Source: a virus
Lineage: Duplodnaviria > Heunggongvirae > Uroviricota > Caudoviricetes
Strand: one strand, 5' to 3'
Virus record (IMG/VR): IMGVR_UViG_3300031707_004017
Length of the DNA stretch: 64,000 bases
In this document: positions 17,549-59,729 of the stretch, piece by piece
Layout: each line of letters opens with the position of its first letter
Numbering within the stretch: the first letter of the stretch is position 1
Notes under the pieces: model-generated
Told to the model about the DNA's origin: nothing
Seen by the model: only the letters and a program-made list of their open reading frames with translations
Database searches by the model: none
Translations under genes and position numbers: made by a program

Positions 17549-18777
17549 TTTACACCTCCGATTGGTAGATTTTCAAGATATCCATTAGTCGCGCCTGATA
17601 AATCTCGTAAACCATCTTCAACATATCGTTCGAACTGCTCACGAAATACAAAATAAATTCTCATAATACTTGCCGGTTTGTTTTGCCATTCATCGATCGA
17701 ATGTCTGTCGCCAATTACATCTTGAGATATTTTAGCACCTGCACCTATTCCAACTTCAGCATTCATTAATCGCATTGAAACATGTGTAGCATTCGTCACT
17801 ACAGATTCATTCATTATAGAATCTTCATAAAACACGGGCGCAGGCGCGGCCAAACAAACATTAATCGCAAAATCATTTGAATCAGTTGATTTAGTAGTTG
17901 ATTTAGTGTATTCTTCAATCTTCAAACTAGATGTAAAACTTTCAGGTGAAACATATGAATGTCTTCTAACTACACCTCTAAATCCTGTACATCCCTGACA
18001 TCCAGTTATACCTCTATAATCAGACATTGATAAAGAGCTAGAATCAGACATTGAAGAGTCACTAAGTCTACCTCTAGAATCAGACATTGATAAAGAATCA
18101 CGAAGTGTTGTTTGTCTAAATATTTTTGGAAATTTATTTTTCAATCTATTACCATTCTCGTAATCTGTCTTACAATCTTTCAATTGATAAAAACAAAAAC
18201 CAAAAGCGGGAACTGTATCTTCTTTACCAATTACAAGTTCAGGTATTGATTTTGTCATATCTTCAGTAAAATAAAATTGTCGAACAGTTCCGTCAGCCGA
18301 CTTAAATCCATCCCAATAAAATGGCATCGGATCTGCTATATAATTTTGTTCCGGCCATTTAAAATTGCACTCTGGACATAATCGACCATGTAAAAATTTG
18401 ACATTATGTATTGGACAACGTTCTTTATATTGTTCAAGACATAAACCATTAATTCTAGCGCCCGTTATAGGATTCATTCCCTTTACTGATGGTAAAATTG
18501 AAATATTGTTATTATTCATCGTCCAGTTAAACCACAACGCCCAATCAGCCTCAATCGGACAGACATATGATCCTTGACCGCCAATCCAAAAATTAGGTCG
18601 ATTTTTCAAATAATCTACCGGTAAACACGGTATAGGAATGCCGGGCGGCAATGATGAATTGTCATCATCTTTCTTTTTATCAGACCGCATTATTGCCGCG
18701 TAAAATCCATTTGATTCCATAACACGATGCATATTACTAGTCATTGAAAATCCTAAAATATTTCTTGATGATAACAT
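17545..18777 (-). CDS. hypothetical protein (410 aa) with Ser-rich tandem repeat
   Basis: ORF; SLSMSDSRGRLSDSSMSDSSSLSMSDYRG encoded by tandem DNA repeats near 18040-18110; 4-bp overlap with vWA gene. Confidence 0.65.
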   Translation of the reverse strand: MLSSRNILGFSMTSNMHRVMESNGFYAAIMRSDKKKDDDNSSLPPGIPIPCLPVDYLKNRPNFWIGGQGSYVCPIEADWALWFNWTMNNNNISILPSVKGMNPITGARINGLCLEQYKERCPIHNVKFLHGRLCPECNFKWPEQNYIADPMPFYWDGFKSADGTVRQFYFTEDMTKSIPELVIGKEDTVPAFGFCFYQLKDCKTDYENGNRLKNKFPKIFRQTTLRDSLSMSDSRGRLSDSSMSDSSSLSMSDYRGITGCQGCTGFRGVVRRHSYVSPESFTSSLKIEEYTKSTTKSTDSNDFAINVCLAAPAPVFYEDSIMNESVVTNATHVSMRLMNAEVGIGAGAKISQDVIGDRHSIDEWQNKPASIMRIYFVFREQFERYVEDGLRDLSGATNGYLENLPIGGVK

Positions 18778-23547: not shown

Positions 23548-25425
23548 TTATTTTGATTGTGTAAGTGTTAAATAGCAAATTTTATTTGTAGAAATTGCTA
23601 ATAAGCCTTGCTTATAAATCTGCAAACTTTGATCGCTATTAACAAATTCAGCCGTCGATGACTTTAATGACAATGAACCATGCCGCTCAATAACAATACC
23701 TGCATCAGTGGGATGAATTATAGCCGATCCAACTAACTGTTTACCATGAATATTTTTTAACAAATCAGAATTGATAGATTCTTCAGTTTTTTTCTCAAGT
23801 ATTTTTGCTTTATCGTTAATTATATGCCAGTGTGAATAAGTACGACCATTATATAAACTTTTTCGTAAAAGTATTACGTTGTCAATTGACATGCACACAT
23901 CAATATCAATGATTTGACCTTTAAGTTCATCCATTTCAATTTCATACCGACCAATCGCAGAAAATACGAAATATTTATGTTGATTAAATATCTGGAACAT
24001 ACCTAAACCAAAATCATTTTTGCCGACCTGCAACCACGTTTGATTTTCCATCGCAGCCGTGACTTCTTCTTCAATGACTTGCCCATTAGTATATTGTCCC
24101 TTCATAATCATATTAGTTGTTAATCGATACAAATAATTACTACTACAAGAAAACACTGGTTCATTATGAAAACTCAACGTGGTCAACTTTGCTATTAAAA
24201 CAACATTGCTGTCTTTTACATCCATAATAAGTAAATCACTATCTTGATTGATCACTAAACAAGACGGTAAAAAATAATCGTACTTAAATTGTGGTTCAAT
24301 CCCTTTCCACAAAAGAAATGACTGCTTAAATTTTTCAGTAATTGAAACGAACCTTGTCTCGCCATCCTCATAACTTATTATGATAATTTTATCATTGATA
24401 ACTTTTGAAAATAAAATTACGCCTTTAGTTTCGTATATCATAATGATATCACATTTTTCTCTATCTATATGTTTTGGTGATATAATACTAGTTAAATCTA
24501 CGACTTGTTGTGGCGCAGTTTTTTGACACTGTGGACATTTCGATCTTGTCTTAGAGAAATAAGTATTACAAGAAGCACATTTATTAAATGTCCCTATTAG
24601 TTCTTGCAAAGACTGCACCGGTAAATTGCTTCTCTCACCCTTACAAAAAATGTTCGAAAAATAATGCAACAAATCGTCGCTTAACGTTTCAGGATGCAAT
24701 GCTATTTTTGGATATACGACTTCTTTTTCTAAAACCCAAACTTTTTTCTGAGCTCGTCGTATCATAGTATTGAACGTCTTATGAGTCCCACCATAAGGAT
24801 GCACAAACAACAAGCTTTTAAAAAGCATGACAGCAAAAGCGTACCAATCAGACTCTATCGTAAAAGACGGCTTTCTTGTTAAATCTACACCGTATAATGT
24901 CGGATCAATAAATGAATCTGTGCCTACAAAACACGGATACCGACCAAATTGAAACGAATCCACATCGATGTAATAAACTGATGAATCATTTTCGACAAAT
25001 AATTTATTGACATCGTTCAAATCGCCGACAATGACATTACTACTATTAATAGCGTCAAGCAGCAATTTAGAGTTAGAAAAGATTTGTATTACGTCATTAG
25101 TCGTAATTTGATGTTGATTTCGATATTTAATATTAGATAAATCGATAAACGACACAGTCCTTGGTGCTATAGCCATCGCAAAACCATTAATTTTACCCGC
25201 TGTATCGGTCACGACATCTATCGGCGCTAAAACATTCGGCGGTAAACTAAAGCCGCACTTTAAAAAAGCTTGCAACTTTTGCGCTCGCTCAAGAGTTGGA
25301 TCATGATAAATTTTAAATGCAATATTGTTATTATATTTAACAACATTAGCCTCGCCACCACTGCCAAGCACATGTTTCGTATCAATGTCAATTATTTTGT
25401 TCTGGTAAACTATTCGCATTTTCAA
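23548..25425 (-). CDS. protein kinase-like protein with Zn-ribbon (625 aa)
   Basis: Gly-rich loop LGSGGEANVV, AFKIY lysine, VIVGDLNDVNKL catalytic-loop-like, IDVDSFQFG DFG-like; CASCNTYFSKTRSKCPQCQK zinc ribbon. Confidence 0.6.
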   Translation of the reverse strand: MKMRIVYQNKIIDIDTKHVLGSGGEANVVKYNNNIAFKIYHDPTLERAQKLQAFLKCGFSLPPNVLAPIDVVTDTAGKINGFAMAIAPRTVSFIDLSNIKYRNQHQITTNDVIQIFSNSKLLLDAINSSNVIVGDLNDVNKLFVENDSSVYYIDVDSFQFGRYPCFVGTDSFIDPTLYGVDLTRKPSFTIESDWYAFAVMLFKSLLFVHPYGGTHKTFNTMIRRAQKKVWVLEKEVVYPKIALHPETLSDDLLHYFSNIFCKGERSNLPVQSLQELIGTFNKCASCNTYFSKTRSKCPQCQKTAPQQVVDLTSIISPKHIDREKCDIIMIYETKGVILFSKVINDKIIIISYEDGETRFVSITEKFKQSFLLWKGIEPQFKYDYFLPSCLVINQDSDLLIMDVKDSNVVLIAKLTTLSFHNEPVFSCSSNYLYRLTTNMIMKGQYTNGQVIEEEVTAAMENQTWLQVGKNDFGLGMFQIFNQHKYFVFSAIGRYEIEMDELKGQIIDIDVCMSIDNVILLRKSLYNGRTYSHWHIINDKAKILEKKTEESINSDLLKNIHGKQLVGSAIIHPTDAGIVIERHGSLSLKSSTAEFVNSDQSLQIYKQGLLAISTNKICYLTLTQSK

Positions 25426-26200
25426 TCACCTTTTCAAAAACGATGCAAGATGCATCATCATAAAATATTTTTCTGTCTGACCAAACGTTAAATTTCCTCT
25501 GCAATCCGCGTTTCTTAGTCCCGTAAAGTTCGCTCGTTAATTGTCGCTCGACTAAAGGTATTAAACCATCAGAACCAATGGCAATCTTATTTACAACTTT
25601 TATATCATACATTGATATTTGTAAGCCTTGTAACTTTGTCGGTTGATTTACTAACGCTTGTCTTGGAACATTGTCATACATTAAATAATGCGGGCCACCG
25701 TCTTGATGAATTATTGTCGCATTGTCATCAATAATTATCACGCCATCTCCGCAATGACCAATAATAATATAATCGCTCAAAACAATACCGAAAATAAACG
25801 TCGTCAATAAATATTCATCGATAAATTTAATTTGGTCTTGAATGTCGTCAATTCGCAGACCACGTAATAAATCATTAATAAATTTATAGCTTGTTGGTTC
25901 AATGATTCCTTTAACGACATTACTAATGATCTGTTGAGACGTATTAGCTGTGAACGCATCAACGTCTTCTTTAAACGGTGAATAATAATCGTCCAACGCC
26001 CCTAAAGATAAATTATTAAGAATAAGATTACCAAATAAACACGCACCAACCTCAGTAAATTGTCCACTGCCACAACCGTCACAAATTATACCATAAACAT
26101 GTTGTTTATCTATTAATGTCGCACAAAAATCTTGTTTATTTGTTTTAAACAATACATGATCGCGACCAATTATCATAGCCTTGTTAACGTTCCACATCAT
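25388..26200 (-). CDS. PP2C-family Ser/Thr protein phosphatase
   Basis: ICDGCGSG, IIIGHCGDGVIII, IAIGSDGL metal-binding Asp motifs; overlaps kinase gene by 38 nt (translational coupling). Confidence 0.65.
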   Translation of the reverse strand: MMWNVNKAMIIGRDHVLFKTNKQDFCATLIDKQHVYGIICDGCGSGQFTEVGACLFGNLILNNLSLGALDDYYSPFKEDVDAFTANTSQQIISNVVKGIIEPTSYKFINDLLRGLRIDDIQDQIKFIDEYLLTTFIFGIVLSDYIIIGHCGDGVIIIDDNATIIHQDGGPHYLMYDNVPRQALVNQPTKLQGLQISMYDIKVVNKIAIGSDGLIPLVERQLTSELYGTKKRGLQRKFNVWSDRKIFYDDASCIVFEKVIENANSLPEQNN

Positions 26201-26862
26201 TTAATTATTTCTCCCGTTTTATACGACCAAAATAATAAATCTAGCTCATCAAAATCTAATTCGTATCGTTTTGCAAAATCTTTCATAATGAGTTCAACTT
26301 TGCAATATTCTTTTTTATTACATGGTTTTTGCACGTTACAACCTAATAAATTAAGCATCGAAATTATGTGCTTATCAAGAATCGCAAAGCCCTTGAACCC
26401 GATGTTTCTAAGAAAATGACTACTTTCTTTGTAACCAATACCACATAAAAATTTAGCAAGAAATTCGCGTAAAGCAAGACCATCGTATTGATCAAATATT
26501 TTTCGTACATCAAGATCACAATAACCTTTTAAAAAATGTCGTGTTCTAACAATGTAATTAGCCCTTGACCTCGGAAATCTATACACGCCTTTTAAGCACG
26601 TCGATATATCTTTTTCATTGCCTAAAAACAACGTGTCGTCATCTATAACACTAACAGCTTTCATCGCCATTTTAGCGCTAGCGTTAGCTGTCAAAATACA
26701 AAAGATTAATTCTTGAAATAATTGTTTAGATGAACCTTTACCTATAACTTGAAATTCATTCAATCGTTTTTGAATCGCAGATTCTACACTAACATAATAC
26801 TGCCTCAAGTCATTAACTGTAGCAATTGTCACGGCATTATCGACTTTAATAATTTCAATCAT
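26197..26862 (-). CDS. ogg: 8-oxoguanine DNA glycosylase/AP lyase, archaeal Ogg2-type (HhH-GPD)
   Basis: LFQELIFCILTANASAKMAMKA and GIGYKESSHFLRNIGFKGFAILDKHI (HhH with catalytic Lys and Asp). Confidence 0.75.
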   Translation of the reverse strand: MIEIIKVDNAVTIATVNDLRQYYVSVESAIQKRLNEFQVIGKGSSKQLFQELIFCILTANASAKMAMKAVSVIDDDTLFLGNEKDISTCLKGVYRFPRSRANYIVRTRHFLKGYCDLDVRKIFDQYDGLALREFLAKFLCGIGYKESSHFLRNIGFKGFAILDKHIISMLNLLGCNVQKPCNKKEYCKVELIMKDFAKRYELDFDELDLLFWSYKTGEIIK

Positions 26863-27743
26863 TTACTTATCGGCCAATGTCGTTTAAAATTTATTTTTTT
26901 AAACAGCGCTGTCCGTGAAATACTTATCGGCCAATGTCGTTTAAAATTTGCCTTTAAATATCGTTGAACAACCGGATGATCTTTTAAGCGATCTCGTTGT
27001 TCAGTTATAGCATCAATATTTGTTAAGTAATTATTTTCCGTCATAATCCAGCATTTTAATATTTTATCAACATCATCATAAGTCGGAGCGCCTAATTGAT
27101 CTAAATCGCTATTGCTTACTCCTAATCCGTCAGTTGGAACAGCTTCAATACATAATTTAAGAGATTCAATTTGTTTCTCGTCTAGCAACATATTTTTTAA
27201 TATAAATTTAGAAATTTCATAAACTTCAGTTTTCCAAAGATGTTGAATCATACCATAATCGCCCCAATCACCCATGATTGTACTAAATCCTAGTAAAAAC
27301 TCCGTATAATTATCCGTGCTAAGAACCATACCTTTATTTTGAGCCGCAAGATCATACAATTTAATCATTCGCATTCGAGCTTTCAAATTACCTAATCGAA
27401 TCTTAAAAGCTACATCACTATGATCAGCTGTATCATAGTCATCTACTATTATAGGAGCAATTTGACGATAAGTATGTGATAAATCAATTTCTTTAAAATC
27501 ATGGCAAAAAGCTACTCCTGTCAAAGCTGCCCGCTGTATTTCGACTTCTGAATTTGTCGCAATAGGTATGCTACGACCTATAAGCGAAATATGTAAACAA
27601 TCGCAAACTGGTCGTGCTAATGCTGCGCAAAGCGTGCTATCAATTCCGCCAGAAATACCGATAATAAGACTTTGAAGTTTATGCTCAATTATATAGTCTT
27701 CAAGTTCTTGCCGAATATTCTTGACAACATCTTTGCAATTCAT
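26859..27743 (-). CDS. nadE: NH3-dependent NAD+ synthetase
   Basis: PP-loop IGISGGIDSTLCAAL ~35 aa from N-terminus; length 294 aa. Confidence 0.85.
   Translation of the reverse strand: MNCKDVVKNIRQELEDYIIEHKLQSLIIGISGGIDSTLCAALARPVCDCLHISLIGRSIPIATNSEVEIQRAALTGVAFCHDFKEIDLSHTYRQIAPIIVDDYDTADHSDVAFKIRLGNLKARMRMIKLYDLAAQNKGMVLSTDNYTEFLLGFSTIMGDWGDYGMIQHLWKTEVYEISKFILKNMLLDEKQIESLKLCIEAVPTDGLGVSNSDLDQLGAPTYDDVDKILKCWIMTENNYLTNIDAITEQRDRLKDHPVVQRYLKANFKRHWPISISRTALFKKINFKRHWPISK
26864..26977. repeat. imperfect 57-bp tandem duplication (2 copies) at nadE 3' end / ogg start
   Basis: acttatcggccaatgtcgtttaaaattt at 26864-26891 and 26921-26948; encodes FKKINFKRHWPIS twice at NadE C-terminus. Confidence 0.7.
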
Positions 27744-27866
27744 AAAATCCTCCTATAAAGATAATTAATTAATCAATATGTTTTACGATGATTTGATCGT
27801 AATCACAATGATTCACAAAGTAAATAATTGTCTTATTATTTCTTAAATAAGTAATAGGAGATTGAA

Positions 27867-28613
27867 ATGTCGTTATATAACAATGCTAATGAATTATTAC
27901 ATGACGCTGTTGAAAAAGGCTTAATCAATCTTTTACAACCACGTGTAAAAATCGGTAACATAGAAATACAATTAAATAATAGCGTCATAAATGTATTGAA
28001 CCTTAATAAATGGATGGAATTCCTCAACTATGTGATTCAAAATTCTGATAATGAAGATGAGATAAACTATGCAACTCAGATATTAGAATCATTCAAGCAA
28101 CAATGTAACATTCAAACAGTCGAAAATGATAAATCATTAATTTCGACCGACGATGTTATAAAACTATCAACTGAACTTAATAATTGCAATACAGTCGATG
28201 ATATTTTTAAATTAATAGGTATCCAACCTCTTGTTAATCGTGTTCCGGAAAAGCTCTACAAGCGCATCGATGCCACAACAATCGCCAAAAGCGCAGAACT
28301 CAATGCAGTTGTACAAGCGGCCGTCAATAATAAAATACCGCTACATGTTGATAAAATATCACCACCATCGCTGACTATTCCAAATACTATTAAGTGGAAA
28401 CGACCTATAAAAATCGACAACAAATGTCGCTATTATGCTCATAATACATCATGGTACATTGAACGTCAAGATGCGTATAACCAATATGGTGGATTAAATT
28501 ATTACTACTCTCTATTTTCGCCCACATCAAAAGAGCGTGCTCGCTTTGACACTCTTAAAGATGCGAAGAAAAATTCTTTAATCGTCATTAAAAGTTTAGT
28601 TGATAATCGATAA
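27867..28613 (+). CDS. hypothetical protein (248 aa) carrying a GC-rich patch shared with gene at 48.6 kb
   Basis: SD GGAGA; segment NRVPEKLYKRIDATTIAKSAELNAVVQAAVNN shared with 48530..48883 product. Confidence 0.65.
   Translation: MSLYNNANELLHDAVEKGLINLLQPRVKIGNIEIQLNNSVINVLNLNKWMEFLNYVIQNSDNEDEINYATQILESFKQQCNIQTVENDKSLISTDDVIKLSTELNNCNTVDDIFKLIGIQPLVNRVPEKLYKRIDATTIAKSAELNAVVQAAVNNKIPLHVDKISPPSLTIPNTIKWKRPIKIDNKCRYYAHNTSWYIERQDAYNQYGGLNYYYSLFSPTSKERARFDTLKDAKKNSLIVIKSLVDNR
28238..28330. repeat. ~90-bp segment near-identical (inverted) to 48590..48680
   Basis: cgtgttccggaaaagctctacaagcgcatcgatgcc...atcgccaaaagcgcagaactcaatg present here and as reverse complement at ~48.6 kb. Confidence 0.8.
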
Positions 28614-28621
28614 TCTAGCAT

Positions 28622-28921
28622 TTGGAGGTACGTGTGTTTGAAGTGCAGAATAATATTAATTATAAAGTCTTCATTAACGCACAGAAAAAAGCAATTGAAG
28701 TGTCAAAATGGATAGAAGGTGAACGTATTAAATCTGATCCCGGCACGCGCTATATACTATTTTGGATACATGCATACGCAAAAGATTTTAAACAAGCATG
28801 GAACAGATCAAGATGCAAAAAATGTAAAAATGAATATTGCAGATATAAAAATGTTTCTAAATGTAACGATTTTTCACCTGATCCAGAACTACAACATGTT
28901 AACAAAGAAACTAATAATTGA
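28622..28921 (+). CDS. small Cys-rich protein (99 aa)
   Basis: RCKKCKNEYCRYKNVSKC; overlaps HPr start. Confidence 0.4.
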   Translation: MEVRVFEVQNNINYKVFINAQKKAIEVSKWIEGERIKSDPGTRYILFWIHAYAKDFKQAWNRSRCKKCKNEYCRYKNVSKCNDFSPDPELQHVNKETNN

Positions 28922-29165
28922 AAATGATCGAGGACTGCATGCTAGACCGTCTGCACTAATTGTTGAAAAAATATTGCCATTTAAATGTAATGTCAAAATC
29001 ACTTGCAACAAAGTCGAAGCAGATGCAAAAAGCGTATTGTCTTTATTATCATTAATTGCTCAAAAAGGATTTGAAGTTGAAATTGTCATTGATGGAGAAA
29101 ATGAAATAGAAGCAATGAAAGTAATGATTGATTTATTTCATAGCAAATTTAAAGAAGCCTACTAG
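28896..29165 (+). CDS. ptsH: phosphocarrier protein HPr (PTS)
   Basis: MLTKKLIIENDRGLHARPSALIV...ADAKSVLSLLSL: His15 in GLHARP and Ser46 in KS(V/I)L both at canonical positions; 89 aa; start chosen inside ORF 28719..29165 at in-frame Met 60. Confidence 0.85.
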   Translation: MLTKKLIIENDRGLHARPSALIVEKILPFKCNVKITCNKVEADAKSVLSLLSLIAQKGFEVEIVIDGENEIEAMKVMIDLFHSKFKEAY

Positions 29166-29688
29166 ATTTAAGTCTAATAAATAAAACTGACACAAGCGGA
29201 TCTTTCACTGTGGGTATTATATCACTTTCAAACCACATACACTTAGCTTTCTTTTCTAATTCTGATCCATCACCGGTCGCATTTTGCATTTCGAAATCTG
29301 TCAAATTTATTGAATACAAATAATAAACAGTATCAGATGATTTTGTCGCAAAACAAGTGCCAAGACTTAATAAATATTTAGATTGGACTTCGTATCCTGC
29401 TTCTTCTTTCAATTCTAAAATAGCAGTGTCTCTTGGATCGCCACCTTCATAACCACCAGTTATAGAACTTATTACTGGTTTAAATCCCCAACAAGGTGTC
29501 ACTTCATTTCGCAATAAATATTCTATTTTGTAATTTGAAAATCTATATGGCAATATTGAAATTATTTTACCATCACATCGCGTCTCATGAGAAAAAACAT
29601 AACCCTCAACCCCTTCTTCGGGCGCTACTAAATTTTTAAGTGATAACCATTTATTAAAAAATAATGTTTGGACATTCATAATCAACAA
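29149..29688 (-). CDS. Nudix-like hydrolase (diverged Nudix box)
   Basis: GGYEGGDPRDTAILELKEEAGYEV approximates Gx5Ex7REUxEExGU (R replaced by L). Confidence 0.5.
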   Translation of the reverse strand: MLIMNVQTLFFNKWLSLKNLVAPEEGVEGYVFSHETRCDGKIISILPYRFSNYKIEYLLRNEVTPCWGFKPVISSITGGYEGGDPRDTAILELKEEAGYEVQSKYLLSLGTCFATKSSDTVYYLYSINLTDFEMQNATGDGSELEKKAKCMWFESDIIPTVKDPLVSVLFIRLKSSRLL

Positions 29689-30014
29689 AAAGCCTCATCT
29701 AAATTATTAAGAAAAGCCTGCTCGTCTTTATAAATGCTAAGTACGCTTGTCAATCCGGTTAATTTAAATGTGTTTAAGATGTCTTCTTTTAACCCATAGA
29801 TACATATGTTTAATTTTGAATCTGCTTCAACTAAATAGCTAATCGCTGTACTGTCGACTGTGCTCACTTCAGACATGTCGAGTGCAATATTTGACCAACC
29901 TTCACCCATTAATTTCTTTATTCGTATTAATAAATGACTGATATTTGTCGCAAGTAACATGCCACTAACTTCTAATAGTATATACGTACTATTGTTACTT
30001 TCACGAATATCCAT
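29682..30014 (-). CDS. STAS-domain anti-sigma factor antagonist (SpoIIAA/RsbV-like)
   Basis: LDMSEVSTVDSTAISYL (cf. DLSGVSFMDSSGLGVL) and GLKEDILNTFKLTGLTSVLSIY. Confidence 0.7.
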   Translation of the reverse strand: MDIRESNNSTYILLEVSGMLLATNISHLLIRIKKLMGEGWSNIALDMSEVSTVDSTAISYLVEADSKLNICIYGLKEDILNTFKLTGLTSVLSIYKDEQAFLNNLDEAFC

Positions 30015-39970: not shown

Positions 39971-40020
39971 TCTATAATATATCGCGCGCGTAAAGGATTT
40001 TGACGAACGAAATTGTTATC
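39970..40020. repeat. left boundary inverted repeat
   Basis: tataatatatcgcgcgcgtaaaggattttgacgaacgaaattgtt = reverse complement of 57834..57870 with 1-2 mismatches. Confidence 0.75.
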
Positions 40021-40840: not shown

Positions 40841-41062
40841 TTAAACTCCGTAGACGCTTTTGTTGTACACATGCGTGTCGCCGAAACTATCGATCGCGTT
40901 GAGATTCCAGACTTTCATTTCATTAAGGGTTTCTTCTTCGATGGGAGAGAGCACATTGTGTTTTTGGCAAGTCTCCAATGCGCGCTGAATAGCCATCAAT
41001 TTGCCGAGGGTCAAGTTCACTGCAAATGCGTTTTTACCTTTTTTCAACCTTGTTAATATCAT
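40841..41062 (-). CDS. hypothetical protein (start at MILTRLKK, SD AAGGAGGAT)
   Basis: Internal Met with strong SD inside ORF 40841..41122; preceded by conserved upstream element. Confidence 0.5.
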   Translation of the reverse strand: MILTRLKKGKNAFAVNLTLGKLMAIQRALETCQKHNVLSPIEEETLNEMKVWNLNAIDSFGDTHVYNKSVYGV

Positions 41063-41094
41063 ATCCTCCTTCTTAGTGATATAATCATGTAAAA

Positions 41095-41215
41095 TGTGCG
41101 TGCGGGCCCAAAATGTGGCCACAACATTTGGCGTAGTTTCTTGAAGTCATAGACTTCTCAGATTAGGGTAAAAAAAGGAAGGTATAAAACCATAGACCGA
41201 TGGGTTTTCTTTAAT
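41095..41215. promoter_or_regulatory. conserved upstream element copy 1 (GTGCG..CAAAATGTGGCC ... TAGACTTCTCAGATTAGG ... GGTATAAAACCAT)
   Basis: Shared blocks with 47797..47975 and 50974..51090; divergent intergenic region. Confidence 0.55.
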
Positions 41216-41346
41216 CTGAAGCCATTCTATAGGTTGACCTAAGCATTTTAATGTCTTTTAAAGTATTAGAAATCAACTACTTAGACGGTCATATTTTGGG
41301 ACGGTTTGTGCATACAGCATGATTATAATATTAACAAGGAGGACCC

Positions 41347-42652: not shown

Positions 42653-42904
42653 ATGAATGCGCGCCAGATCAAGAAACTCATGTTAAATGAACTGGACATT
42701 CCCAGACACAAGATCGAGTATGTAATCTCTCGTCCAGTCCTCGTCCAGGGTTTATGGGGTTGCTTGGCTGCATACGGCGTCGAACACGATCGAGAAAATC
42801 ATGAATTGCTGGTCGAAATCGTGCAAGACAAGTTAAATGAACCGGATATTGAAAGAGAGTGGAGTGAACTCGAATATGAAACGTTTGTAAAATGGGGGTC
42901 GTAA
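42653..42904 (+). CDS. hypothetical protein (start MNARQIKK, SD GGAGG)
   Basis: Internal Met with SD inside ORF 42584..42904. Confidence 0.45.
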   Translation: MNARQIKKLMLNELDIPRHKIEYVISRPVLVQGLWGCLAAYGVEHDRENHELLVEIVQDKLNEPDIEREWSELEYETFVKWGS

Positions 42905-44025
42905 AAATGCCTAAGAAAAGCTTTTGGACATCGCAATCGCGTTACGGCACTTACGAGGGCGAGAAGGGAAATCCTGGACAATGGTCATCATCATTCGGCT
43001 TCACCTTCGAAAACTCCAACTCGGTGAAATCGATCATGGGAATGACTGCTTATTCGATACTCGACCTCAAACCCTCAGCCAGCGACGATGCCGTGCGCAA
43101 TGCCTTTCGTAAACTAGCAAAACGCTATCATCCCGATAAGGGTGGCAATCGAAACAAGTTTGAAGAAATCACGACTGCTTACGAGACCATTAAAAACATG
43201 CGAGGCACGTCGAACCATACTCGCTCATCGAGGGCCCAAAATATGCACGGCCCGACAGTCCAATCGGAGCTTATTGTCCCACAACTGCTCACTGAGATCG
43301 AAGAGTCTGAATTAGCGACGTATTTATCCGATGATAATTTCGCATGCCAAGAGAAAAAAGACGGCAAGCATTTGACGTTACAGATACTCGACGGCCAATT
43401 TATCGTGCGAAATAAAAAAGGAATCGCATCGAGTTGTATGCCGGAATTTGAACCTGCAATACGGTCAGTCGGCCTTGATTTGCTCATCGATGGCGAACAA
43501 ATCGGTACCACATTTTGGGCGTGGGACGTGCTCGAATATGCAGGACAAGATCTTCGTAGTGAGTCGTATTATTCGAGGTATCTTAAATTGTCTGGAATAA
43601 ATTTCGGACCCGAGATTCAAGTGCTTAAGTTAGTGACAGGGACAGATGCAAAAACTCGATTCTACAACGAGCTAAAAAATGCGAACAAAGAAGGAATCGT
43701 ATTCAAGAAACTAGTGGGGATATTTAGTCCGGGAAAAGGTTTAGACCAATTGAAATTCAAATTTTATACAGAGTGTTCTGTGATAGTAGCTGCAGGTCGT
43801 CCGGGAAAAGCGAGCATCGGAATGGAATTGATTGGTCAAAACGGACGCGAATTCGTGGGATATTGTTCATGTAATCGTCACCCACCGATTGGAAGCGTCG
43901 TAGAAATCAAATATTTGTATGCATATCCGGGCGGTTGCCTTTATCAGTCTAGTTTCAAAGAACCGCGTGATGATGTCTCAGTCGATGAATGTACGATTTC
44001 GCAATTGAAATATAAACCGCTTTGA
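42892..44025 (+). CDS. DnaJ J-domain fused to minimal ATP-dependent ligase-type nucleotidyltransferase
   Basis: J domain YSILDLKPSASDDAVRNAFRKLAKRYHPDKGG (HPD); ligase motifs I KKDGKH, III LLIDGEQ, IIIa FWAWDVL, IV EGIVFKK, V LKFKF. Confidence 0.75.
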   Translation: MGVVKMPKKSFWTSQSRYGTYEGEKGNPGQWSSSFGFTFENSNSVKSIMGMTAYSILDLKPSASDDAVRNAFRKLAKRYHPDKGGNRNKFEEITTAYETIKNMRGTSNHTRSSRAQNMHGPTVQSELIVPQLLTEIEESELATYLSDDNFACQEKKDGKHLTLQILDGQFIVRNKKGIASSCMPEFEPAIRSVGLDLLIDGEQIGTTFWAWDVLEYAGQDLRSESYYSRYLKLSGINFGPEIQVLKLVTGTDAKTRFYNELKNANKEGIVFKKLVGIFSPGKGLDQLKFKFYTECSVIVAAGRPGKASIGMELIGQNGREFVGYCSCNRHPPIGSVVEIKYLYAYPGGCLYQSSFKEPRDDVSVDECTISQLKYKPL

Positions 44026-45579: not shown

Positions 45580-46503
45580 TCATGAATTCATGTCAAAAAG
45601 TGACCGTTGTGCCGGTATTATATTATGTGACAAGTGCGTTTCGGGTTCCGATCCGTCATACTGACTATATGGATTGTTCGCAGAAATGCGAACGACTTTT
45701 CCAGTGGGATTTACTGTACATCCGCGTTGCAATGATGTCACTTTCGTCGATACGACTTTCGTCGGTGCTGCTGCCCAATCAACGTCGTCTTCTTTGGGTT
45801 TGATTTCGCCTTTCCGAATAAATTTGTTTTTTGCTAAATCGAATTCAAGCAGCTCGAATTCATAAATTGTACCGAAGCTCACTTGAGGGAAAAGTCCAAA
45901 ATCGCTTTTGATGTCTAGTGCTTTCTTAAGCAAGCTTTTCGTCGATGCGAAGAATATCATATTGTGGCAATAACCTATTGCTAACGGTCGATTGTCGTCG
46001 GTCCAAAAATAAATCTTCTTTATCGTCTTATTGTAAAGAACTATTGTCGCGCTACCATTCATATTTTTGATGGCATTCTTAATGCCCTGTCGTTGGATAT
46101 ACGAAAGGATAACTTCTGAGTCGACATCTTCGCTCGTATATTTATAATTAGCGATTTTCGGCATGCGGACTGTTCCGTTATGGATTATGATCCAATCTTT
46201 GGATTCAAATGGGTGAGCATTGATGTCTTTTGTTCGACTCTCGGGAGTGGTGTTAGACGAAGCTGCACGATCATGACCTAGCACAAATCGTTCATTAGCG
46301 AGTTCAGCGATGACTCGACCTCGCTTGACGAATTCTGTTGCCGTAATTGCTTCTTTTACGATACCGAGATTGGGTGCGTAATAACCTGTAGCATCGGTCC
46401 CACGAATCTGAGTCTCTATGAGACCTTTTTCGAAGATTTTAACGAGATCAAGATTGGTTTCTGTCTTAATGGTCGGTTTTATCCAACCAAATATTCCACA
46501 CAT
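45580..46503 (-). CDS. class II glutamine amidotransferase (Ntn hydrolase) domain protein, stand-alone
   Basis: MCGIFGW N-terminal Cys nucleophile, RGTDATGY, GHDRAASSNT...NAHPF, IIHNGTV: full GATase-2 motif set; no fused synthetase domain. Confidence 0.8.
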   Translation of the reverse strand: MCGIFGWIKPTIKTETNLDLVKIFEKGLIETQIRGTDATGYYAPNLGIVKEAITATEFVKRGRVIAELANERFVLGHDRAASSNTTPESRTKDINAHPFESKDWIIIHNGTVRMPKIANYKYTSEDVDSEVILSYIQRQGIKNAIKNMNGSATIVLYNKTIKKIYFWTDDNRPLAIGYCHNMIFFASTKSLLKKALDIKSDFGLFPQVSFGTIYEFELLEFDLAKNKFIRKGEIKPKEDDVDWAAAPTKVVSTKVTSLQRGCTVNPTGKVVRISANNPYSQYDGSEPETHLSHNIIPAQRSLFDMNS

Positions 46504-46560
46504 CCGCGCCTCCTATATATTTAATCAAACTATTTTGCATAGATGGACCATTCTCATTGC

Positions 46561-47229
46561 TTATTCTTCAGAGTCACAACGAACTGTTGCAGTCCCGTCC
46601 AACCGTAATTTCATCTGCTTCACAGGATTCGCTGCTCGAATTAGTTTGAGCATTTTCTTTTTATCTGAATTTTCCCAGACTTGTTTCCAATACTTAGGCA
46701 TTGACTTCTTCAACACGTTCATCATCTTTTCCGTTATCGGCTTACCGGTCAAAAACCATTTGGCAAAGCTGCACAAAATGTGACCGTCGTGGCCAGTAAA
46801 ACCGACATTGTTTCGAATCGTCGTCATTTCGGTCTGTTGTTCAGCAATTGTTTGGTGGTTGAAAATAAGCACAAGCGCTTTCGTAATCCACCGGGGATCA
46901 GTGCGGAGCTTTTTCTTAATGAACTCCTTGATTTCATCTTGTTTGATCGTGTGGAAGAGGTCCCAATATTCTTCCCAATCTTTCATGAAATTGAACGCGT
47001 CATCGATATTATCTTGCCATGATGACTGCTCTGATAAAGCGATAAAGTCAGCACCAACACCGTGCTTTTCTTGATATTTCGTCAACGGCATGTTGACCGT
47101 TATACGCGGTTGGTCGAAGACTAATTCCGCCCTTAAAAAGGCCGCATACTGTCTGAGTTCATCGATAGTTTTCATGATAACCAGGTTTCTATGCATTAAG
47201 TACAGATCTCGCGTTTGCATGCCGCTCAA
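46561..47229 (-). CDS. hypothetical protein (222 aa)
   Basis: ORF track. Confidence 0.55.
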   Translation of the reverse strand: MSGMQTRDLYLMHRNLVIMKTIDELRQYAAFLRAELVFDQPRITVNMPLTKYQEKHGVGADFIALSEQSSWQDNIDDAFNFMKDWEEYWDLFHTIKQDEIKEFIKKKLRTDPRWITKALVLIFNHQTIAEQQTEMTTIRNNVGFTGHDGHILCSFAKWFLTGKPITEKMMNVLKKSMPKYWKQVWENSDKKKMLKLIRAANPVKQMKLRLDGTATVRCDSEE

Positions 47230-47554
47230 TATATGACTGTTGACAATTCATTTCTTCGGCGACTTTTTTGTCGTATTCAATCTTGAGAGAAGCCAGTCGG
47301 TTTGGATGGTTCGCGATTTTCTGTGTGCATTCTTCGACTTCTCGCAGCGCTGAATATCTTGAGTCAGCGTAGACCGAGTAGCCGCCGGATGATTGTCCCC
47401 GACTGAGCGGGTCCGGAGGTTCTCTCACCAGCGTAAAATGTGCGCTGGAATATTTGATCCGAATCTCTGCTAGTTGCCGTTTAACAGCTTCTTTGTCCCA
47501 GCTGTAGATGCCGGTGAAGCTGAGTCCTTGTTCGTGTGCCTTTTGTTTTGTCAT
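47189..47554 (-). CDS. hypothetical protein (121 aa)
   Basis: ORF track. Confidence 0.5.
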   Translation of the reverse strand: MTKQKAHEQGLSFTGIYSWDKEAVKRQLAEIRIKYSSAHFTLVREPPDPLSRGQSSGGYSVYADSRYSALREVEECTQKIANHPNRLASLKIEYDKKVAEEMNCQQSYIERHANARSVLNA

Positions 47555-47754
47555 AAGTCACCACTTTCCAAGCAACCGCGCTCGTACAATGACATCGTCT
47601 CTTCAATTTGGGCCTGTTCGTCCAGATTTACATCGGCCAATCGCTGCTCCATCAAGTCCTTTGCCGTATCAAGGACATCGATCTGCTCTGGAGTATAGCA
47701 ATGGTCAAACGACGTTGAACCCTTCCTCGCAAAATCATCGGCTAAATGCATCAT
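47551..47754 (-). CDS. hypothetical protein (67 aa)
   Basis: SD AAGAAGGAGGATAAG before ATG; downstream of conserved element. Confidence 0.45.
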   Translation of the reverse strand: MMHLADDFARKGSTSFDHCYTPEQIDVLDTAKDLMEQRLADVNLDEQAQIEETMSLYERGCLESGDL

Positions 47755-47796
47755 TTTCTTATCCTCCTTCTTAATAATATAATCAAGTAATCTGCA

Positions 47797-47975
47797 TGTG
47801 CGAGCTCAAAATATGACCGTTTAAGTAGTTGATTTCTATAGACTTATAAAACTTACTATTCAAACACATAGAATATCGTCAAACGACAACGGACATATTT
47901 TGAGCAGTCAATGATTTCAGAGCCTTATGAGATTATCTCAGATTAGGTTTATGACAAGAGGTATAAAACCATTAC
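47797..47975. promoter_or_regulatory. conserved upstream element copy 2 (includes AAGTAGTTGATTTCTATAGACTTATA at 47823..47848)
   Basis: 26-nt block identical to 50999..51024; shares GGTATAAAACCAT and TCAGATTAGG with copy 1. Confidence 0.6.
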
Positions 47976-48029
47976 TAAAGATTTTAAACTAATCGGAGTG
48001 CTTTAGATACGTTTTAAATTCGATGGGGG

Positions 48030-48479
48030 TTAAACGGTCTTATTTTGAACTTGCAAGTCAGTACGCTCTTTACGTGCCTTACACCAGTCGCCGCTCACAA
48101 TTCGTTCGTAATGTCCGTTTTGGAAATGTTTTCCACCAATATAAACCCAAACTCGTTTTCCAGATTTCGTCGTCGCTTTCTTCCTTAAAAACAAATCGTT
48201 CGTATGATCGTATCTCAAATGATATCCTTCAAAATGGTCGAGAGTGCCAATGACATGACTGTAAGTAGTCTCATAAACTTCACCAACAACCCGGTCTTTA
48301 TTCGATTGAGAAAAACTGATATAAGGATAAGCCCAGTTAGCACTAAAAAGCTTGCCTCGAATTGAATCATAGCAGATGAATGTTGCGCCGCTTAAAAGAT
48401 TAGAACGACTGTCAGCTTTCCTAAGAGTACCATAAACGAAGATTAAGACTTTGTCATTTTTTTTCATCGAGGACCTCAT
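48030..48479 (-). CDS. gamma-glutamyl cyclotransferase-like (AIG2/GGCT fold) protein
   Basis: VLIFVYGTLRK N-terminal YGTL motif and downstream GEVYE catalytic-Glu context. Confidence 0.65.
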   Translation of the reverse strand: MRSSMKKNDKVLIFVYGTLRKADSRSNLLSGATFICYDSIRGKLFSANWAYPYISFSQSNKDRVVGEVYETTYSHVIGTLDHFEGYHLRYDHTNDLFLRKKATTKSGKRVWVYIGGKHFQNGHYERIVSGDWCKARKERTDLQVQNKTV

Positions 48480-48480
48480 A

Positions 48481-48511
48481 AAAAAGGGCTAAAATATATA
48501 GCCCCTTTTTG
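48481..48511. terminator. hairpin terminator between convergent-orientation minus genes
   Basis: aaaaAGGGCTaaaatatatAGCCCCttttt. Confidence 0.45.
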
Positions 48512-48529
48512 AACACCTTTTCTGGAGAA

Positions 48530-48883
48530 TTAAGCTGCCGCAACTTCTGTCTTGCGAGTCCGCTTTGCCTTGGAAATGTCGCCCATAACATTATTGATGG
48601 CCGCTGTAACAGCAGCCTGCACAGCTACATTGAGTTCTGCGCTTTTGGCGATTGCGGCATCGATGCGCTTGTAGAGCTTTTCCGGAACACGATTGATCTT
48701 TAGGCCTTTGACGGCGAGCTTGACTGCTTTCTTCGTCATCGACCGAGCGCGTTTGAGAGTGCGATTGAGTTTTGCGACTTTGATGACCAGCCGTTTTTTG
48801 GCTTTTTTCGCTTTGGAATGCCGCTTTTTCTTGCGATCGATTTTCAGAGATTTCGGCTTCCGTTCACGTTTTCCTGTTGCCAT
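48530..48883 (-). CDS. highly basic Lys/Arg-rich small protein (117 aa), possible nucleic-acid-binding
   Basis: KRERKPKSLKIDRKKKRHSKAKKAKKR...; contains the segment shared with 27867..28613. Confidence 0.5.
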   Translation of the reverse strand: MATGKRERKPKSLKIDRKKKRHSKAKKAKKRLVIKVAKLNRTLKRARSMTKKAVKLAVKGLKINRVPEKLYKRIDAAIAKSAELNVAVQAAVTAAINNVMGDISKAKRTRKTEVAAA

Positions 48884-48949
48884 TCATACACCTCCTTGAG
48901 TTATAGATTAAAGACAGATTTAAATAGCAGTGAAAGCTCTGTCGTGTGA

Positions 48950-49372
48950 TCAATCACCGCTGGATGCTTCGTCCTGTCGCTGATGAGCCTCTTCACGAGC
49001 GACATCGAGAATACTGAATTTCACCGATGAAGCGCCGATGGCCTTGAAAAACTTCGTCAATTGTTCTTGCACCTTTTTGGTCCCGTTCTTGCCGTGGCGA
49101 ACCGCATGGGACAGAAGGATGTTTGATTGCGCCTTGATGCCGATCCAATTCATACCGATCTTCGACAAGAACTTCGACTTTTCGACCAACTTGAGAGCGG
49201 CAATCGATGGTTCGCTGACATGTATGATGTTGGACGGCGCATGGCGCCACTCGGCCAATCCACGAATCGACAACGTCGAAACATCGACGCGTTTCGTGTC
49301 CGGGAAATTTACGGTACCGGTGAGGTTGAGACCCTCATCATCCGTATTGAATTGAAGCGTTACTTCCTGCAT
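48950..49372 (-). CDS. hypothetical protein (140 aa)
   Basis: ORF track. Confidence 0.5.
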   Translation of the reverse strand: MQEVTLQFNTDDEGLNLTGTVNFPDTKRVDVSTLSIRGLAEWRHAPSNIIHVSEPSIAALKLVEKSKFLSKIGMNWIGIKAQSNILLSHAVRHGKNGTKKVQEQLTKFFKAIGASSVKFSILDVAREEAHQRQDEASSGD

Positions 49373-49435
49373 GTTTGCCTCCTATTGGTTATGTATGTGT
49401 AATCAGTTAATCTGTGATTTTTGGTCCATTTTTTC

Positions 49436-50695
49436 TTAAGCTTCTACTTCTCTACGCATTTTTTTACGCACGCACGTTTCGAAGATTCTCGCGATATCTT
49501 CTGACATATTGGGATTCGACGCTCTCGAGTTGTAAAACACTGAATTGTTTAATGGATTCGATTGCACGCGTGAATCTTGGCTTGTAGTCGACACCAAATT
49601 CCTACGATGGATTTCGATGAAGCGCGCCCGGTATTGACTGCTTCGAGGAATTTTCAAAAATGGCCGCAATTCTTTACTGAAATAAATCGTGTTCGGTCTT
49701 AATCGGATATCCCGTGAAAGCTGTAATTGCCACGGTGTGTAATCGCCAAGGGGATAGATTCGAACTTCTGATACTGCAAACCGGCAGACTTTGAAAACTG
49801 TCTCCTGTTCGAATTCGTTCTCCCGATGAATTATCTTTAACTGGCAAATCTGTAATTGAATCCTCTCCGATCCCCGACGACTGCGACGGCTAGTTGCAGT
49901 CACATCCGATTGGATTAAATTGGGATTAGGATTAGTCCACAATTCTATACAATTAGGATTGTCCAATCGGTATGTTTTCGAAAATACGATTCGCTTGAAA
50001 TTCGCGATCTGAGTCGCATAATAGGATTGTTCCGGTCCTGATTCCGGTACGAGCATCGCATATTCGCGCTTCCTCGCGACTCGTTTCGCAGTAATGAGGT
50101 GATCGAACGCAGTCGGTTTTACTTGCCACATCTTAGCGATCTGGTATGCGATTGCCAGCACCGATTCTGCTAAGACGGGATCAGTGATCCACGACGGCGG
50201 CGTCCGATATTCGAAACCATGAGGTTGCATTCGCACATCGCCCGGTTTTCCATAAGATTGTCCGCTCCTTTTCGCACCGGGCACTTTTTTCAATCGTAAA
50301 CCTAGAAAATAATCGAGAGTCGTGATTAGTCGGCCTTGATGATTGTTACCAAAATTTGTTTGCCGACGGCGTCGACCATGATCATGGCTACTCCAAAAAG
50401 AATCCCAAGACATTCCAAAATGGATGTGCCCACCAGTAGCCTCGTGATATTGTTCACCGCCGCCGCATACAATCTTTATCTGGGGATGATGAGTTTTTAC
50501 ATGATGGAAAAGGTGCCTGAGGTTTTCGACCACTTGAGTAGGCGTTCCCGGCGCTGGCCGCATCTCACCGACACGGTTACCGTGATCCGACCCAACTTCA
50601 CCATACCGACTCTGATAACTGATATTACATAAAATACTTCGATTTTCTGGACCGACCACCATAAATTCAGGATCACATCCCAATGTCAATGGCAT
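49436..50695 (-). CDS. glutamine synthetase-fold amidoligase (GCS2/Amidoligase_2-like)
   Basis: N-terminal strand TLGCDPEFMVV (metal-binding acidic pair), GEMRPAP, and TGGHIHFGMS (GS-like HxH motif). Confidence 0.6.
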   Translation of the reverse strand: MPLTLGCDPEFMVVGPENRSILCNISYQSRYGEVGSDHGNRVGEMRPAPGTPTQVVENLRHLFHHVKTHHPQIKIVCGGGEQYHEATGGHIHFGMSWDSFWSSHDHGRRRRQTNFGNNHQGRLITTLDYFLGLRLKKVPGAKRSGQSYGKPGDVRMQPHGFEYRTPPSWITDPVLAESVLAIAYQIAKMWQVKPTAFDHLITAKRVARKREYAMLVPESGPEQSYYATQIANFKRIVFSKTYRLDNPNCIELWTNPNPNLIQSDVTATSRRSRRGSERIQLQICQLKIIHRENEFEQETVFKVCRFAVSEVRIYPLGDYTPWQLQLSRDIRLRPNTIYFSKELRPFLKIPRSSQYRARFIEIHRRNLVSTTSQDSRVQSNPLNNSVFYNSRASNPNMSEDIARIFETCVRKKMRREVEA

Positions 50696-50973: not shown

Positions 50974-51090
50974 ATGTGCGCCCAAAATGTGGTCATCTAA
51001 GTAGTTGATTTCTATAGACTTATAGAGACCTATGATCGATTGTACCAACGTATCAGATTAATTCAGATAATGAATTTAGCCTAAGTTAAT
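50974..51090. promoter_or_regulatory. conserved upstream element copy 3 (GTGCGCCCAAAATGTGGTC...AAGTAGTTGATTTCTATAGACTTATA...TCAGATTAAT)
   Basis: See copies 1 and 2; inverted partial copy CATATTTTGAGCTCGCAC at ~51172. Confidence 0.6.
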
Positions 51091-51299
51091 GGTAATATAC
51101 CTTCTTAAAATTTACCTCTATCGCTATTTCAAAATTGACGTAGATAAAAGCGATGTCTCATTAATTGACTGCCATATTTTGAGCTCGCACGCACATTCTA
51201 CTTGATTATTATACTAACATGAAAATCTTTCTTAATGCATAGAACAATGGACCAAGATTCAAAGATAATGTGATTATAATCTTAACTTAGAGGTATCTA

Positions 51300-52581: not shown

Positions 52582-52821
52582 GTGGTACAAATGACAGCTA
52601 AAGATTTACAATTAATACTTAGTCTTGTAAACGCAAATGGTGGTTCGACTTTTAAACGAGCATGGAAAAATATTTGCATTTACATCAAAAAAGTTCAAAA
52701 ACCTTCACGTTACAAACCAATTATACCATTATCATGTGTTGGATGTGTTGGTGGCGGGTCTCGTTGCTATACATGTGTTCGTAATGTAAAAGAAGATAGA
52801 TATTATAAACATGACGACTAA
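52582..52821 (+). CDS. small Cys-rich protein (79 aa)
   Basis: CVGCVGGGSRCYTCVRN. Confidence 0.4.
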   Translation: MVQMTAKDLQLILSLVNANGGSTFKRAWKNICIYIKKVQKPSRYKPIIPLSCVGCVGGGSRCYTCVRNVKEDRYYKHDD

Positions 52822-53428
52822 CCAGATACAATACTTTTATCCACCCAAACCGACTCGAATCTGGCCCGATTCACCGCTCGTCGTGAGCTTTGCCGACTCT
52901 TTAGACTGGATTGCTGAAATCAAACTCAACGGCTGGCGCATCTTGCTTTTCATACTCGCCGATTCGATTCAAATCTACAACAGCAATGGCTCCGTCATCG
53001 ACATCGACCACGAAATTTTTCGGCCACATTTTGAGCGCTTTCCTGCCAACACAGTCTTCGACGGCGAGCTCCTCGATAAACGGACGAAGACACTCAAAAA
53101 TGTCATGGTATTCTGGGACACGTGCTTTTATAACGGCCTCGATGTCCGTCGAAAACCACTCAAAGAACGCAAGCAGTATTTAAAGTTCCCTATTGCACCT
53201 TTAACATTTGTCCAAAAACCAACAGCCCAAATCTTTAAAAGTCAACAATTCAACGACGATTTCCTCAACCTATATAACCAAACTATCACTCGTAACGATC
53301 CCCTCGAAGAAGGCATCGTCATCAAAAATCTATCGTCAACTTACAAACACAATCCAAAACGAAGTATTGACATTCTAGACTGGTTCAAAATCAAAAAAAT
53401 CGACGACCATGCGCTTGTTAACCGGTAA
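52811..53428 (+). CDS. minimal ligase/nucleotidyltransferase-like protein with atypical motif I (KLNGWR), paralog of 42892..44025 C-terminal domain
   Basis: I EIKLNGWR (N in place of D), III VFDGELL, IIIa VMVFWDTCFY, IV EGIVIKN, V DWFKIKK; FWDTCFYNGLDVRRK aligns with FWAWDVLEYAGQDLRSE. Confidence 0.6.
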   Translation: MTTNQIQYFYPPKPTRIWPDSPLVVSFADSLDWIAEIKLNGWRILLFILADSIQIYNSNGSVIDIDHEIFRPHFERFPANTVFDGELLDKRTKTLKNVMVFWDTCFYNGLDVRRKPLKERKQYLKFPIAPLTFVQKPTAQIFKSQQFNDDFLNLYNQTITRNDPLEEGIVIKNLSSTYKHNPKRSIDILDWFKIKKIDDHALVNR

Positions 53429-57803: not shown

Positions 57804-57870
57804 CCTTTACGCGCGCGATATAATGGGGACATGAACAATTTCGTTCGTCAAGATCCTTTACGCGCGCGAT
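57804..57870. repeat. right boundary inverted repeat (two direct copies of CCTTTACGCGCGCGAT plus GAACAATTTCGTTCGTCAAGATCC)
   Basis: Reverse complement matches 39970..40020. Confidence 0.75.
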
Positions 57871-58013: not shown

Positions 58014-58040
58014 TTCGGCAGTAGCGCGGACGTTGGCCAG
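58014..58040. repeat. left flanking direct repeat of the 11-bp array (ttcggcagtagcgcggacgttggccag)
   Basis: Matches 58478..58505 (ttcggcagtaacgcagacattgggccgg). Confidence 0.6.
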
Positions 58041-59655: not shown

Positions 59656-59729
59656 CGTACAATAACCCTACTGGTGAGTAGGTCGTTGTCTATTAGAAGA
59701 TTTTAGAATATGTATTGATTGTATTTTCA

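Follow-up and report, generated by a model that had tools for sequence, protein, structure and literature searches.

An inverted in-frame repeat in two unrelated phage genes points to ectopic copying of a basic protein's helical core into an interdomain linker

The window analyzed here is a 64,000-nucleotide stretch of phage DNA that belongs to a 107-kb metagenomic contig. Two of its genes, designated gene A and gene B, carry copies of the same short coding segment on opposite strands. We found that the segment in gene A was very probably copied from part of gene B in a recent, single ectopic event of illegitimate recombination and was then altered by drift. The features that bear on this reading are as follows.

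27867 to 28613, plus strand: gene A, 248 aa, the first gene of a conserved operon, adjoining the NAD synthase and Ogg genes
28236 to 28331, plus strand: recipient copy of the module, a 96-nt in-frame insert at gene A codons 124 to 155, NRVPEKLYKRIDATTIAKSAELNAVVQAAVNN
48530 to 48883, minus strand: gene B, a small lysine/arginine-rich helical protein (117 aa, pI 11.6, 38 K+R)
48590 to 48694, minus strand: donor-type copy of the module, 105 nt at gene B codons 64 to 98, NRVPEKLYKRIDAAIAKSAELNVAVQAAVTAAINN, the conserved helical core of its family
28236 to 28274, plus strand, and 48656 to 48694, minus strand: perfect 39-nt block, inside which the Logan k=31 breaks fall
28279 to 28305, plus strand, and 48628 to 48654, minus strand: perfect 27-nt block
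28275 to 48655: segment between the perfect inverted blocks, 20.4 kb, which includes the composition change at ~38-39 kb and is contiguous in the k=31 assembly

A self-comparison of the window recovered two inverted pairs, 28236-28278 with 48652-48694 (I3; 43 nt, 98%) and 28279-28324 with 48609-48654 (I4; 46 nt, 87%). In a codon-aware alignment, 28236-28331 on the plus strand and 48590-48694 on the minus strand were identical at 87 of 93 aligned bases. The initial annotation had placed the patch and its peptide correctly, and the self-alignment it proposed as a check returned the inverted repeat, which is slightly longer than it had stated. Both copies are in frame, and the shared peptide is NRVPEKLYKRIDA(TT/A)IAKSAELN(AV/VA)VQAAV..NN. 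The borders of the tract are abrupt, and the sequence flanking it cannot be aligned between genes A and B. In the window, the 39-mer is present at these two sites and nowhere else; 100 dinucleotide shuffles gave no match to it with up to three mismatches allowed. A tblastn search of the window in all frames found no third copy of the shared peptide. We also considered a MITE-like element and rejected it: there are just two copies in the window, the 36-nt core of the 39-nt block had no match in IMG/VR, and one of the copies is the core of a protein.

The two copies differ by two indels, both in frame, and by six substitutions, four non-synonymous and two synonymous. Gene A has ACA ACA where gene B has GCA, and it lacks 12 nt. 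At the substituted positions, the B copy has G, T, C, G, G, and A, and the A copy has A, C, T, A, A, and G. We infer that this pattern of change in the A copy is what would be expected of a tolerated insert, with no sign of selection on the peptide. A reading of the A copy as old and under purifying selection was tried and dropped. It rested on a gap placement that left seven differences in 21 nt, five of them consecutive and synonymous, and it fell when the 12-nt gap was set earlier, which gave five differences in 30 nt and the overall count of substitutions reported above. The differences are clustered, with one in the first 66 aligned nucleotides and five in the last 30 (Fisher p = 0.011). 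This clustering fits a single copying event followed by uniform drift poorly. The donor may have been a slightly different allele, or the 5' part may have been re-homogenized later by gene conversion between the A and B copies.

The module belongs to the family of gene B. When 1.84 billion representative proteins were searched with a profile built on the module only, 19 matched. Eighteen of these are B-type basic proteins of 105 to 163 aa, and the other is the gene A product of the window. All B-family members have the module at one relative position, first in seven of seven and then in all 18 others, and their protein identity is 35 to 59%. D75 and A91 are the only invariant residues of the family and both lie in the module, where P67 and N97 are near-invariant; the A copy retains all four. 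Gene B has the traits of its family, which are the length, the lysine/arginine-rich N-terminal helix, the PEKLY-KID-IAK...AV..AVN core, and a position after the ligase and 140-aa genes. Its description as a gene for a basic protein in the initial annotation is borne out by its pI and its lysine/arginine content. In the structural model of the gene B product, helices span residues 68 to 80 and 82 to 116. Gene A carries the core module only and is not a member of this small basic protein family. The B family can be classed as an uncharacterized phage family with no known Pfam or PHROG match. None of 185,579 GTDB reference genomes contained a relative of gene B, so this search gave no host clue and no prophage.

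Gene B sits in a cassette whose other members are listed below.

49436 to 50695, minus strand: phiEco32-type COOH-NH2 ligase (PF14395, E 1.4e-27), the first gene of a conserved triad
48950 to 49372, minus strand: 140-aa protein, always between the ligase and gene B, with 59 to 68% identity across loci
48030 to 48479, minus strand: GGACT/AIG2 gamma-glutamyl cyclotransferase-like protein, directly downstream of gene B
45580 to 46503, minus strand: class II glutamine amidotransferase, which recurs in the gene B cassette

The triad of ligase, 140-aa protein, and basic protein is kept in all six loci that have enough upstream sequence (L002, L006, L018, L020, L021, and L022, all metagenomic). A GGACT cyclotransferase, a 222-aa protein, and a class II glutamine amidotransferase are found near the cassette. 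One gene B-type locus is on a 416-kb IMG/VR contig, and another is on a 136-kb contig. Neither the 140-aa protein nor the small basic protein had a match in Pfam, PHROG, or PDB. From this gene order, it is very likely that the basic protein acts together with the ligase and the 140-aa protein, and it is plausible as a substrate or partner of the ligase. The C-terminal tail of the basic protein is rich in Glu and Ala.

Gene A has few relatives, and they lack the module. Besides the gene A protein of the window itself, only three homologues were found among 5.8 billion protein clusters. These are P0002, P0003, and P0004, with identities of 45 to 48% and 35%. In the window, gene A is followed on the plus strand by the genes below.

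28634 to 28921, plus strand: ORF of ~95 aa
28896 to 29165, plus strand: HPr

Gene A heads the same small operon in L001 and in L007 to L010, beside Ogg, NAD synthase, or NAPRTase genes. Because this synteny is kept, we regard P0002, P0003, and P0004 as orthologous to gene A. The module is missing from all three. At the module site, the linker is 60 aa long in the gene A product of the window, versus 11 to 31 non-conserved residues in the homologues. The AlphaFold2 model of the gene A product is weak as a whole (pLDDT 60), and residues 121 to 174, which include the insert, have a pLDDT below 50. In this model, the low-confidence stretch separates an N-terminal domain from a C-terminal beta-rich domain. 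The linker that holds the insert is probably disordered.

Scans of genes A and B against Pfam, PHROG, and NCBIfam gave no meaningful family. Two hits from these scans, phrog_1952 (E 0.005) and MADS5 (15.9 bits versus a cut-off of 400), look like chance. In the linker of P0002, the residues KVTQKL resemble RVPEKL and were considered as a trace of an older insertion; the likeness is weak and was judged to be chance.

The composition of the patch matches gene B. Its GC content is 51%, versus 30.5% in the remaining gene A, and that of gene B is 49%. GC3 is 0.48 in the patch versus 0.25 in the remaining gene A. The patch is thus GC-rich relative to its host gene, as the initial annotation had stated. 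Its synonymous codon choice gave a log-likelihood ratio of +10.8 bits toward the GC-richer half of the window. None of 612 control windows of 32 codons, taken from genes of the AT-rich half, reached this value.

These observations show that the copying went from gene B to gene A, because the module is native to the B family, is missing in the gene A homologues, and has the codon usage and GC content of the donor. The initial annotation had proposed a transfer from the GC-rich segment into the core genome, and this direction is upheld. The A copy is the derived one, because the B copy agrees with its family on length: every other B-family member has a single residue at the TT of gene A, as well as the four residues that gene A lost. 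The copying was recent, because all synonymous sites are identical over the 39 and 27 nt of the perfect blocks, in contrast to the divergence within the family. It was also lineage-specific, because the only non-B architecture among the 19 module carriers is the gene A product itself. What we see is a single 96-nt event, unique among the representative proteins searched, and it does not demonstrate habitual DNA exchange between the two regions. The initial annotation had read the repeat as direct evidence of exchange between two compartments, provided that the assembly is real.

We suggest the following course of events. A copy of about 105 nt from the helical core of gene B would have entered gene A in frame, at a distance of 20 kb and in the opposite orientation. 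The donor may have been the resident gene B or a near-identical allele from a co-infecting relative. The landing site would have been the length-variable linker between the two domains of the gene A product. Illegitimate recombination or a template switch could account for the join, perhaps primed by AAT / AATAAT microhomology at the borders. The insert has AAT at its start and AATAAT at its end, followed by AAA in gene A; the nearest homologue available for comparison is only 48% identical. Subsequent drift of the A copy would have included a duplication of the ACA codon, a 12-nt deletion between short repeats, and the six substitutions.

We then turned to the support for the assembly. Logan contigs, in which every 31-mer is kept distinct (PMC12424806), were 100% identical to the window (SRR9617949, k=31). 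The contig covering the upstream (5') portion of gene A ends at 28265, which is 30 nt (k-1) into the 39-nt block. Contig SRR9617949_187703, of 20,441 bp, corresponds to 28245-48685 of the window and runs unbranched from repeat copy to repeat copy. Its start (28245) lies 30 nt inside the block as counted from the opposite end, and its end (48685) lies 30 nt inside the B copy. The breaks fall exactly k-1 = 30 nt inside the block, as expected of a perfect repeat of 39 nt. Besides the 3' part of gene A, this contig includes the patch with the variants specific to the A copy, and it spans the composition change at ~38-39 kb. Therefore, the AT-rich and GC-richer halves are parts of one chromosome. 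The A copy does not consist of misplaced B reads, because it has variants of its own.

A MEGAHIT contig from ENA (k141; 100,367 bp; offset 12,843 bp) was 100% identical to the window over the stretch that was fetched, 42.6-51.5 kb. This stretch includes gene B and its cassette, arranged as in the window. The ENA contig also codes for identical NAD synthase and STAS products, whose genes flank gene A, and both ENA and JGI are given as sources of the intact gene A protein. A lookup of the exact gene A product gave no hit, so that on the ENA side gene A is supported only via the P0001 source listing and these neighbor genes. The three assemblies are independent in method; they may derive from the same or related samples, and so are not necessarily independent in biology. 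The assembly, whose reality the initial annotation had presupposed, is upheld, since the k=31 Logan contigs cover both gene A junctions at 100% and the ENA k141 contig agrees. The misjoin that it had named as a test is excluded by these two further assemblies at 100% identity. Its contrast between a core genome and a separate compartment does not stand, because the single k=31 contig joins both, and because the ligase cassette of a relative, L002, likewise exceeds its own flanks locally in GC content.

These data bear on two other accounts of the repeat. The gene A patch could be a chimeric join or a collapsed repeat, with the two halves of the window coming from different genomes. The window is metagenomic and its GC profile steps from ~35% to ~42% at ~38-39 kb, as might be expected of such an artefact. 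However, the patch has sequence homologous to the gene A family to its left and to its right, so two switches would be needed. In addition, the A copy has private variants, the k=31 and k=141 assemblies agree at 100%, the only breaks of the Logan contigs are within the 39-nt block, and one contig bridges the repeats across the composition change. We consider an artefact hardly conceivable. The repeats could also be a substrate for recombination. The 39-nt inverted repeats would permit host or phage homologous recombination to invert the 20.4-kb segment and swap the C termini of the two proteins. They are perfect over 39 nt and in a common frame, and the resulting chimeric ORFs (177/178 and 187/188 aa) would be intact. 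However, Pfam found no resolvase/invertase or integrase family among 76 ORFs of the window, nor did the PHROG scans. The arrangement in the window is matched by that in the fetched stretch of the ENA contig, and none of the four predicted chimeras was found among ~15 billion proteins, where both intact proteins are present. The segment is also several times larger than known programmed invertible segments, and it carries unrelated housekeeping genes. A rare 20-kb inversion by homologous recombination across the 39 nt, giving domain-swapped forms of both proteins, is conceivable, but a recombination substrate is a very improbable explanation of the repeat.

Two further accounts were weighed. 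In a diversity-generating retroelement, one copy would serve as the template repeat, from which a reverse transcriptase rewrites the other, the variable repeat. A repeat pair of ~100 nt with few substitutions and with one copy in a protein-coding gene has this general form. However, there is no RVT family among 76 ORFs of the window, and the differing positions are adenine in only one of six cases with B as the template, or in three of six with A as the template. Both copies are coding, the would-be template is the conserved core of a protein, and the would-be variable copy falls within a linker in mid-protein instead of a ligand-binding domain at the C terminus. For the window, we give a retroelement practically no weight. 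The last account is that gene A captured a functional module, in which case the helix would serve in docking or recognition, for instance of the ligase, the 140-aa protein, or nucleic acid, and its insertion would have been selected for bringing the gene A product to the partner of the basic protein. Gene A retains the residues that alone are invariant in the B family, both indels of the A copy keep the frame, and the conserved triad very probably ties the basic protein to those partners. However, the frame must hold in any case for the C-terminal domain of the gene A product, and the event is unique among 1.84 billion representatives. The A copy has changed in the ratio of four non-synonymous to two synonymous substitutions and is down four residues and up one relative to the family. 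The model is of low confidence or disordered around the insert, and neither protein has a known partner. Selected capture is therefore unlikely. It is similarly doubtful that the copied helix is a portable docking element for the cassette of ligase, 140-aa protein, GGACT protein, and amidotransferase, with the gene A product as a second client.

Ectopic copying of a gene B segment into gene A is a fresh instance of well-known sub-genic mosaicism in phages, and it changes no concept. In the Hendrix/Hatfull model, such mosaicism arises by illegitimate recombination, either non-homologous or microhomology-mediated. The present case resembles it in that a short, near-identical segment with abrupt borders is shared by unrelated genes, keeps the frame, lies in a tolerant linker, and is missing in the recipient orthologues. 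It differs in that donor and recipient are in one genome and inverted, which makes the event an intragenomic partial gene duplication, with a co-infecting donor as a possibility. Ectopic (interlocus) gene conversion is similar in being non-reciprocal and leaving the donor intact, and the high identity of the 5' two thirds could reflect later conversion. However, members of the recipient family carry nothing homologous at the site. The original event was therefore not classical gene conversion, one of the two routes put forward in the initial annotation, but an ectopic insertion. The arrangement also recalls the Mu G and P1 C segments and shufflons, since the inverted repeats lie within two coding sequences in one frame and an inversion would exchange the C-terminal parts. 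Known invertible segments measure ~3 kb for Mu G and ~4 kb for P1 C. In contrast to those systems, the repeats here enclose 20.4 kb of unrelated genes, the window yielded no invertase, a single orientation has been recorded, and the products of genes A and B are not alternative tail-fibre tips.

The gene B cassette has its own parallels. For clusters of this kind, Iyer et al. 2009 reportedly predicted an amidoligase role in the modification of peptides or metabolites. Among Pseudomonas phages, the LUZ24-like and tf-like ones have clusters annotated with a phiEco32-type COOH-NH2 ligase and a glutamine amidotransferase (PMC3890496, PMC6209634). The neighbors of gene B are similar, comprising the PF14395 ligase, the class II glutamine amidotransferase, and the GGACT-type cyclotransferase. 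Unlike those clusters, the triad here and in six other loci adds two families that have no match in Pfam, PHROG, or PDB.

The source phage is large, very divergent, and uncultured. The window codes for a baseplate-wedge-like protein and for Ig-domain tail or decoration proteins, and its auxiliary genes include NAD synthase, Ogg, HPr, STAS, PP2C, and DNA ligase. No tRNA or tmRNA genes and no Rfam families were found in the window. A megablast search with both repeat loci gave no match among 50,697 phage records, which marks the phage as a novel lineage. A tandem array of an 11-bp unit (x 30) is present at 58.0-58.4 kb.

The repeat offers a clean and well-polarized case, in which the donor, the recipient, the direction, and the approximate recency are legible from the sequence. 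If the copied helix did act as a docking element, the gene A product would join an uncharacterized phage protein-modification system as a client. The triad cassette and the 11-bp array are probably more rewarding leads than the repeat. The more useful by-product of the analysis is the uncharacterized triad of ligase, 140-aa protein, and basic protein, which occurs in large uncultured phages. The repeat itself illustrates how phage genes gain foreign segments at linkers.

Repeats and distinctive gene groups lie in both the AT-rich and the GC-richer half of the window. They are as follows.

18009-18036 / 18069-18096 and 26864-26892 / 26921-26949, direct repeat pairs in coding regions of the AT-rich half
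25388-30014, host-signalling-type protein cluster surrounding gene A (the AT-rich gene with the patch copied from gene B)
39978-40017 and 57797-57870, inverted repeats with 17.8 kb between them, found by self-comparison of the window
41059-41120, 41267-41343, 47757-47848, 50975-51024 and 51168-51217, intergenic repeat family, direct and inverted
42892-44025 and 52811-53428, a pair of proteins that each have an ATP-dependent DNA ligase domain
45580-50695, minus strand, cassette of ligase, 140-aa protein and basic protein (gene B)
58036-58364, non-coding array in which an 11-bp unit is repeated in tandem about 30 times
59697-59820 and 62968-63119, repeat group separated by 3.2-3.3 kb, found by self-comparison

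The 11-bp array has a perfect period, and its unit is GCCAGATATTA, with TGG and TAG variants mixed in. One arm of the inverted repeats, which share the core ATCGCGCGCGTAAAGGATTTTGA and align over 37 nt (97%) and 26 nt (92%), lies immediately upstream. The GC skew switches sign in the non-coding stretch that holds the array. With their helical period, the iterons point to a candidate protein-binding array, either centromere-like (parC-type) or origin-type.

The intergenic repeats of the GC-richer half are 50 to 77 nt long and 78 to 88% identical, and contain TATAAT-like and ribosome-binding-site-like motifs. They probably represent recurring promoter or leader sequences that serve divergent operons. 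The pairs between 59697-59820 and 62968-63119 comprise a 59-nt inverted repeat (88%) and direct repeats of 41 nt (95%) and 30 nt (100%); this pattern suggests either that regulatory regions were duplicated or that small paralogous genes are present. In the AT-rich half, the two coding-region pairs are 28 to 29 nt long and perfect or near-perfect, with a spacing of 60 nt for the pair at 18009-18096 and 57 nt for the pair at 26864-26949.

The phage-encoded cluster near gene A includes a PP2C phosphatase, HPr (28896-29165) and a STAS-domain protein (29682-30014), and is adjoined by genes for NAD synthase and an Ogg-type glycosylase. Its pairing of STAS with PP2C resembles bacterial partner-switching modules. 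In the GC-richer half, the ligase-domain protein at 42892-44025 carries an N-terminally fused DnaJ domain, which is an unusual architecture.

The cassette around gene B is a conserved phage cassette, composed of a phiEco32-type COOH-NH2 ligase (PF14395), a 140-aa protein and the small basic protein. It recurs in the related metagenomic loci L002, L006, L018, L020, L021 and L022, and its carriers are large uncultured phage contigs, one of them 416 kb long and another 136 kb. The 140-aa protein matches no known family, and at 59 to 68% identity between loci it is more conserved than the ligase. Nearby are GGACT, a 222-aa protein (phrog_21015) and a class II glutamine amidotransferase. The basic proteins have C-terminal tails rich in Glu, Ala and Pro, frequently ending in ...AA. 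The cassette may be a candidate system for protein modification in which the basic protein would be the substrate.
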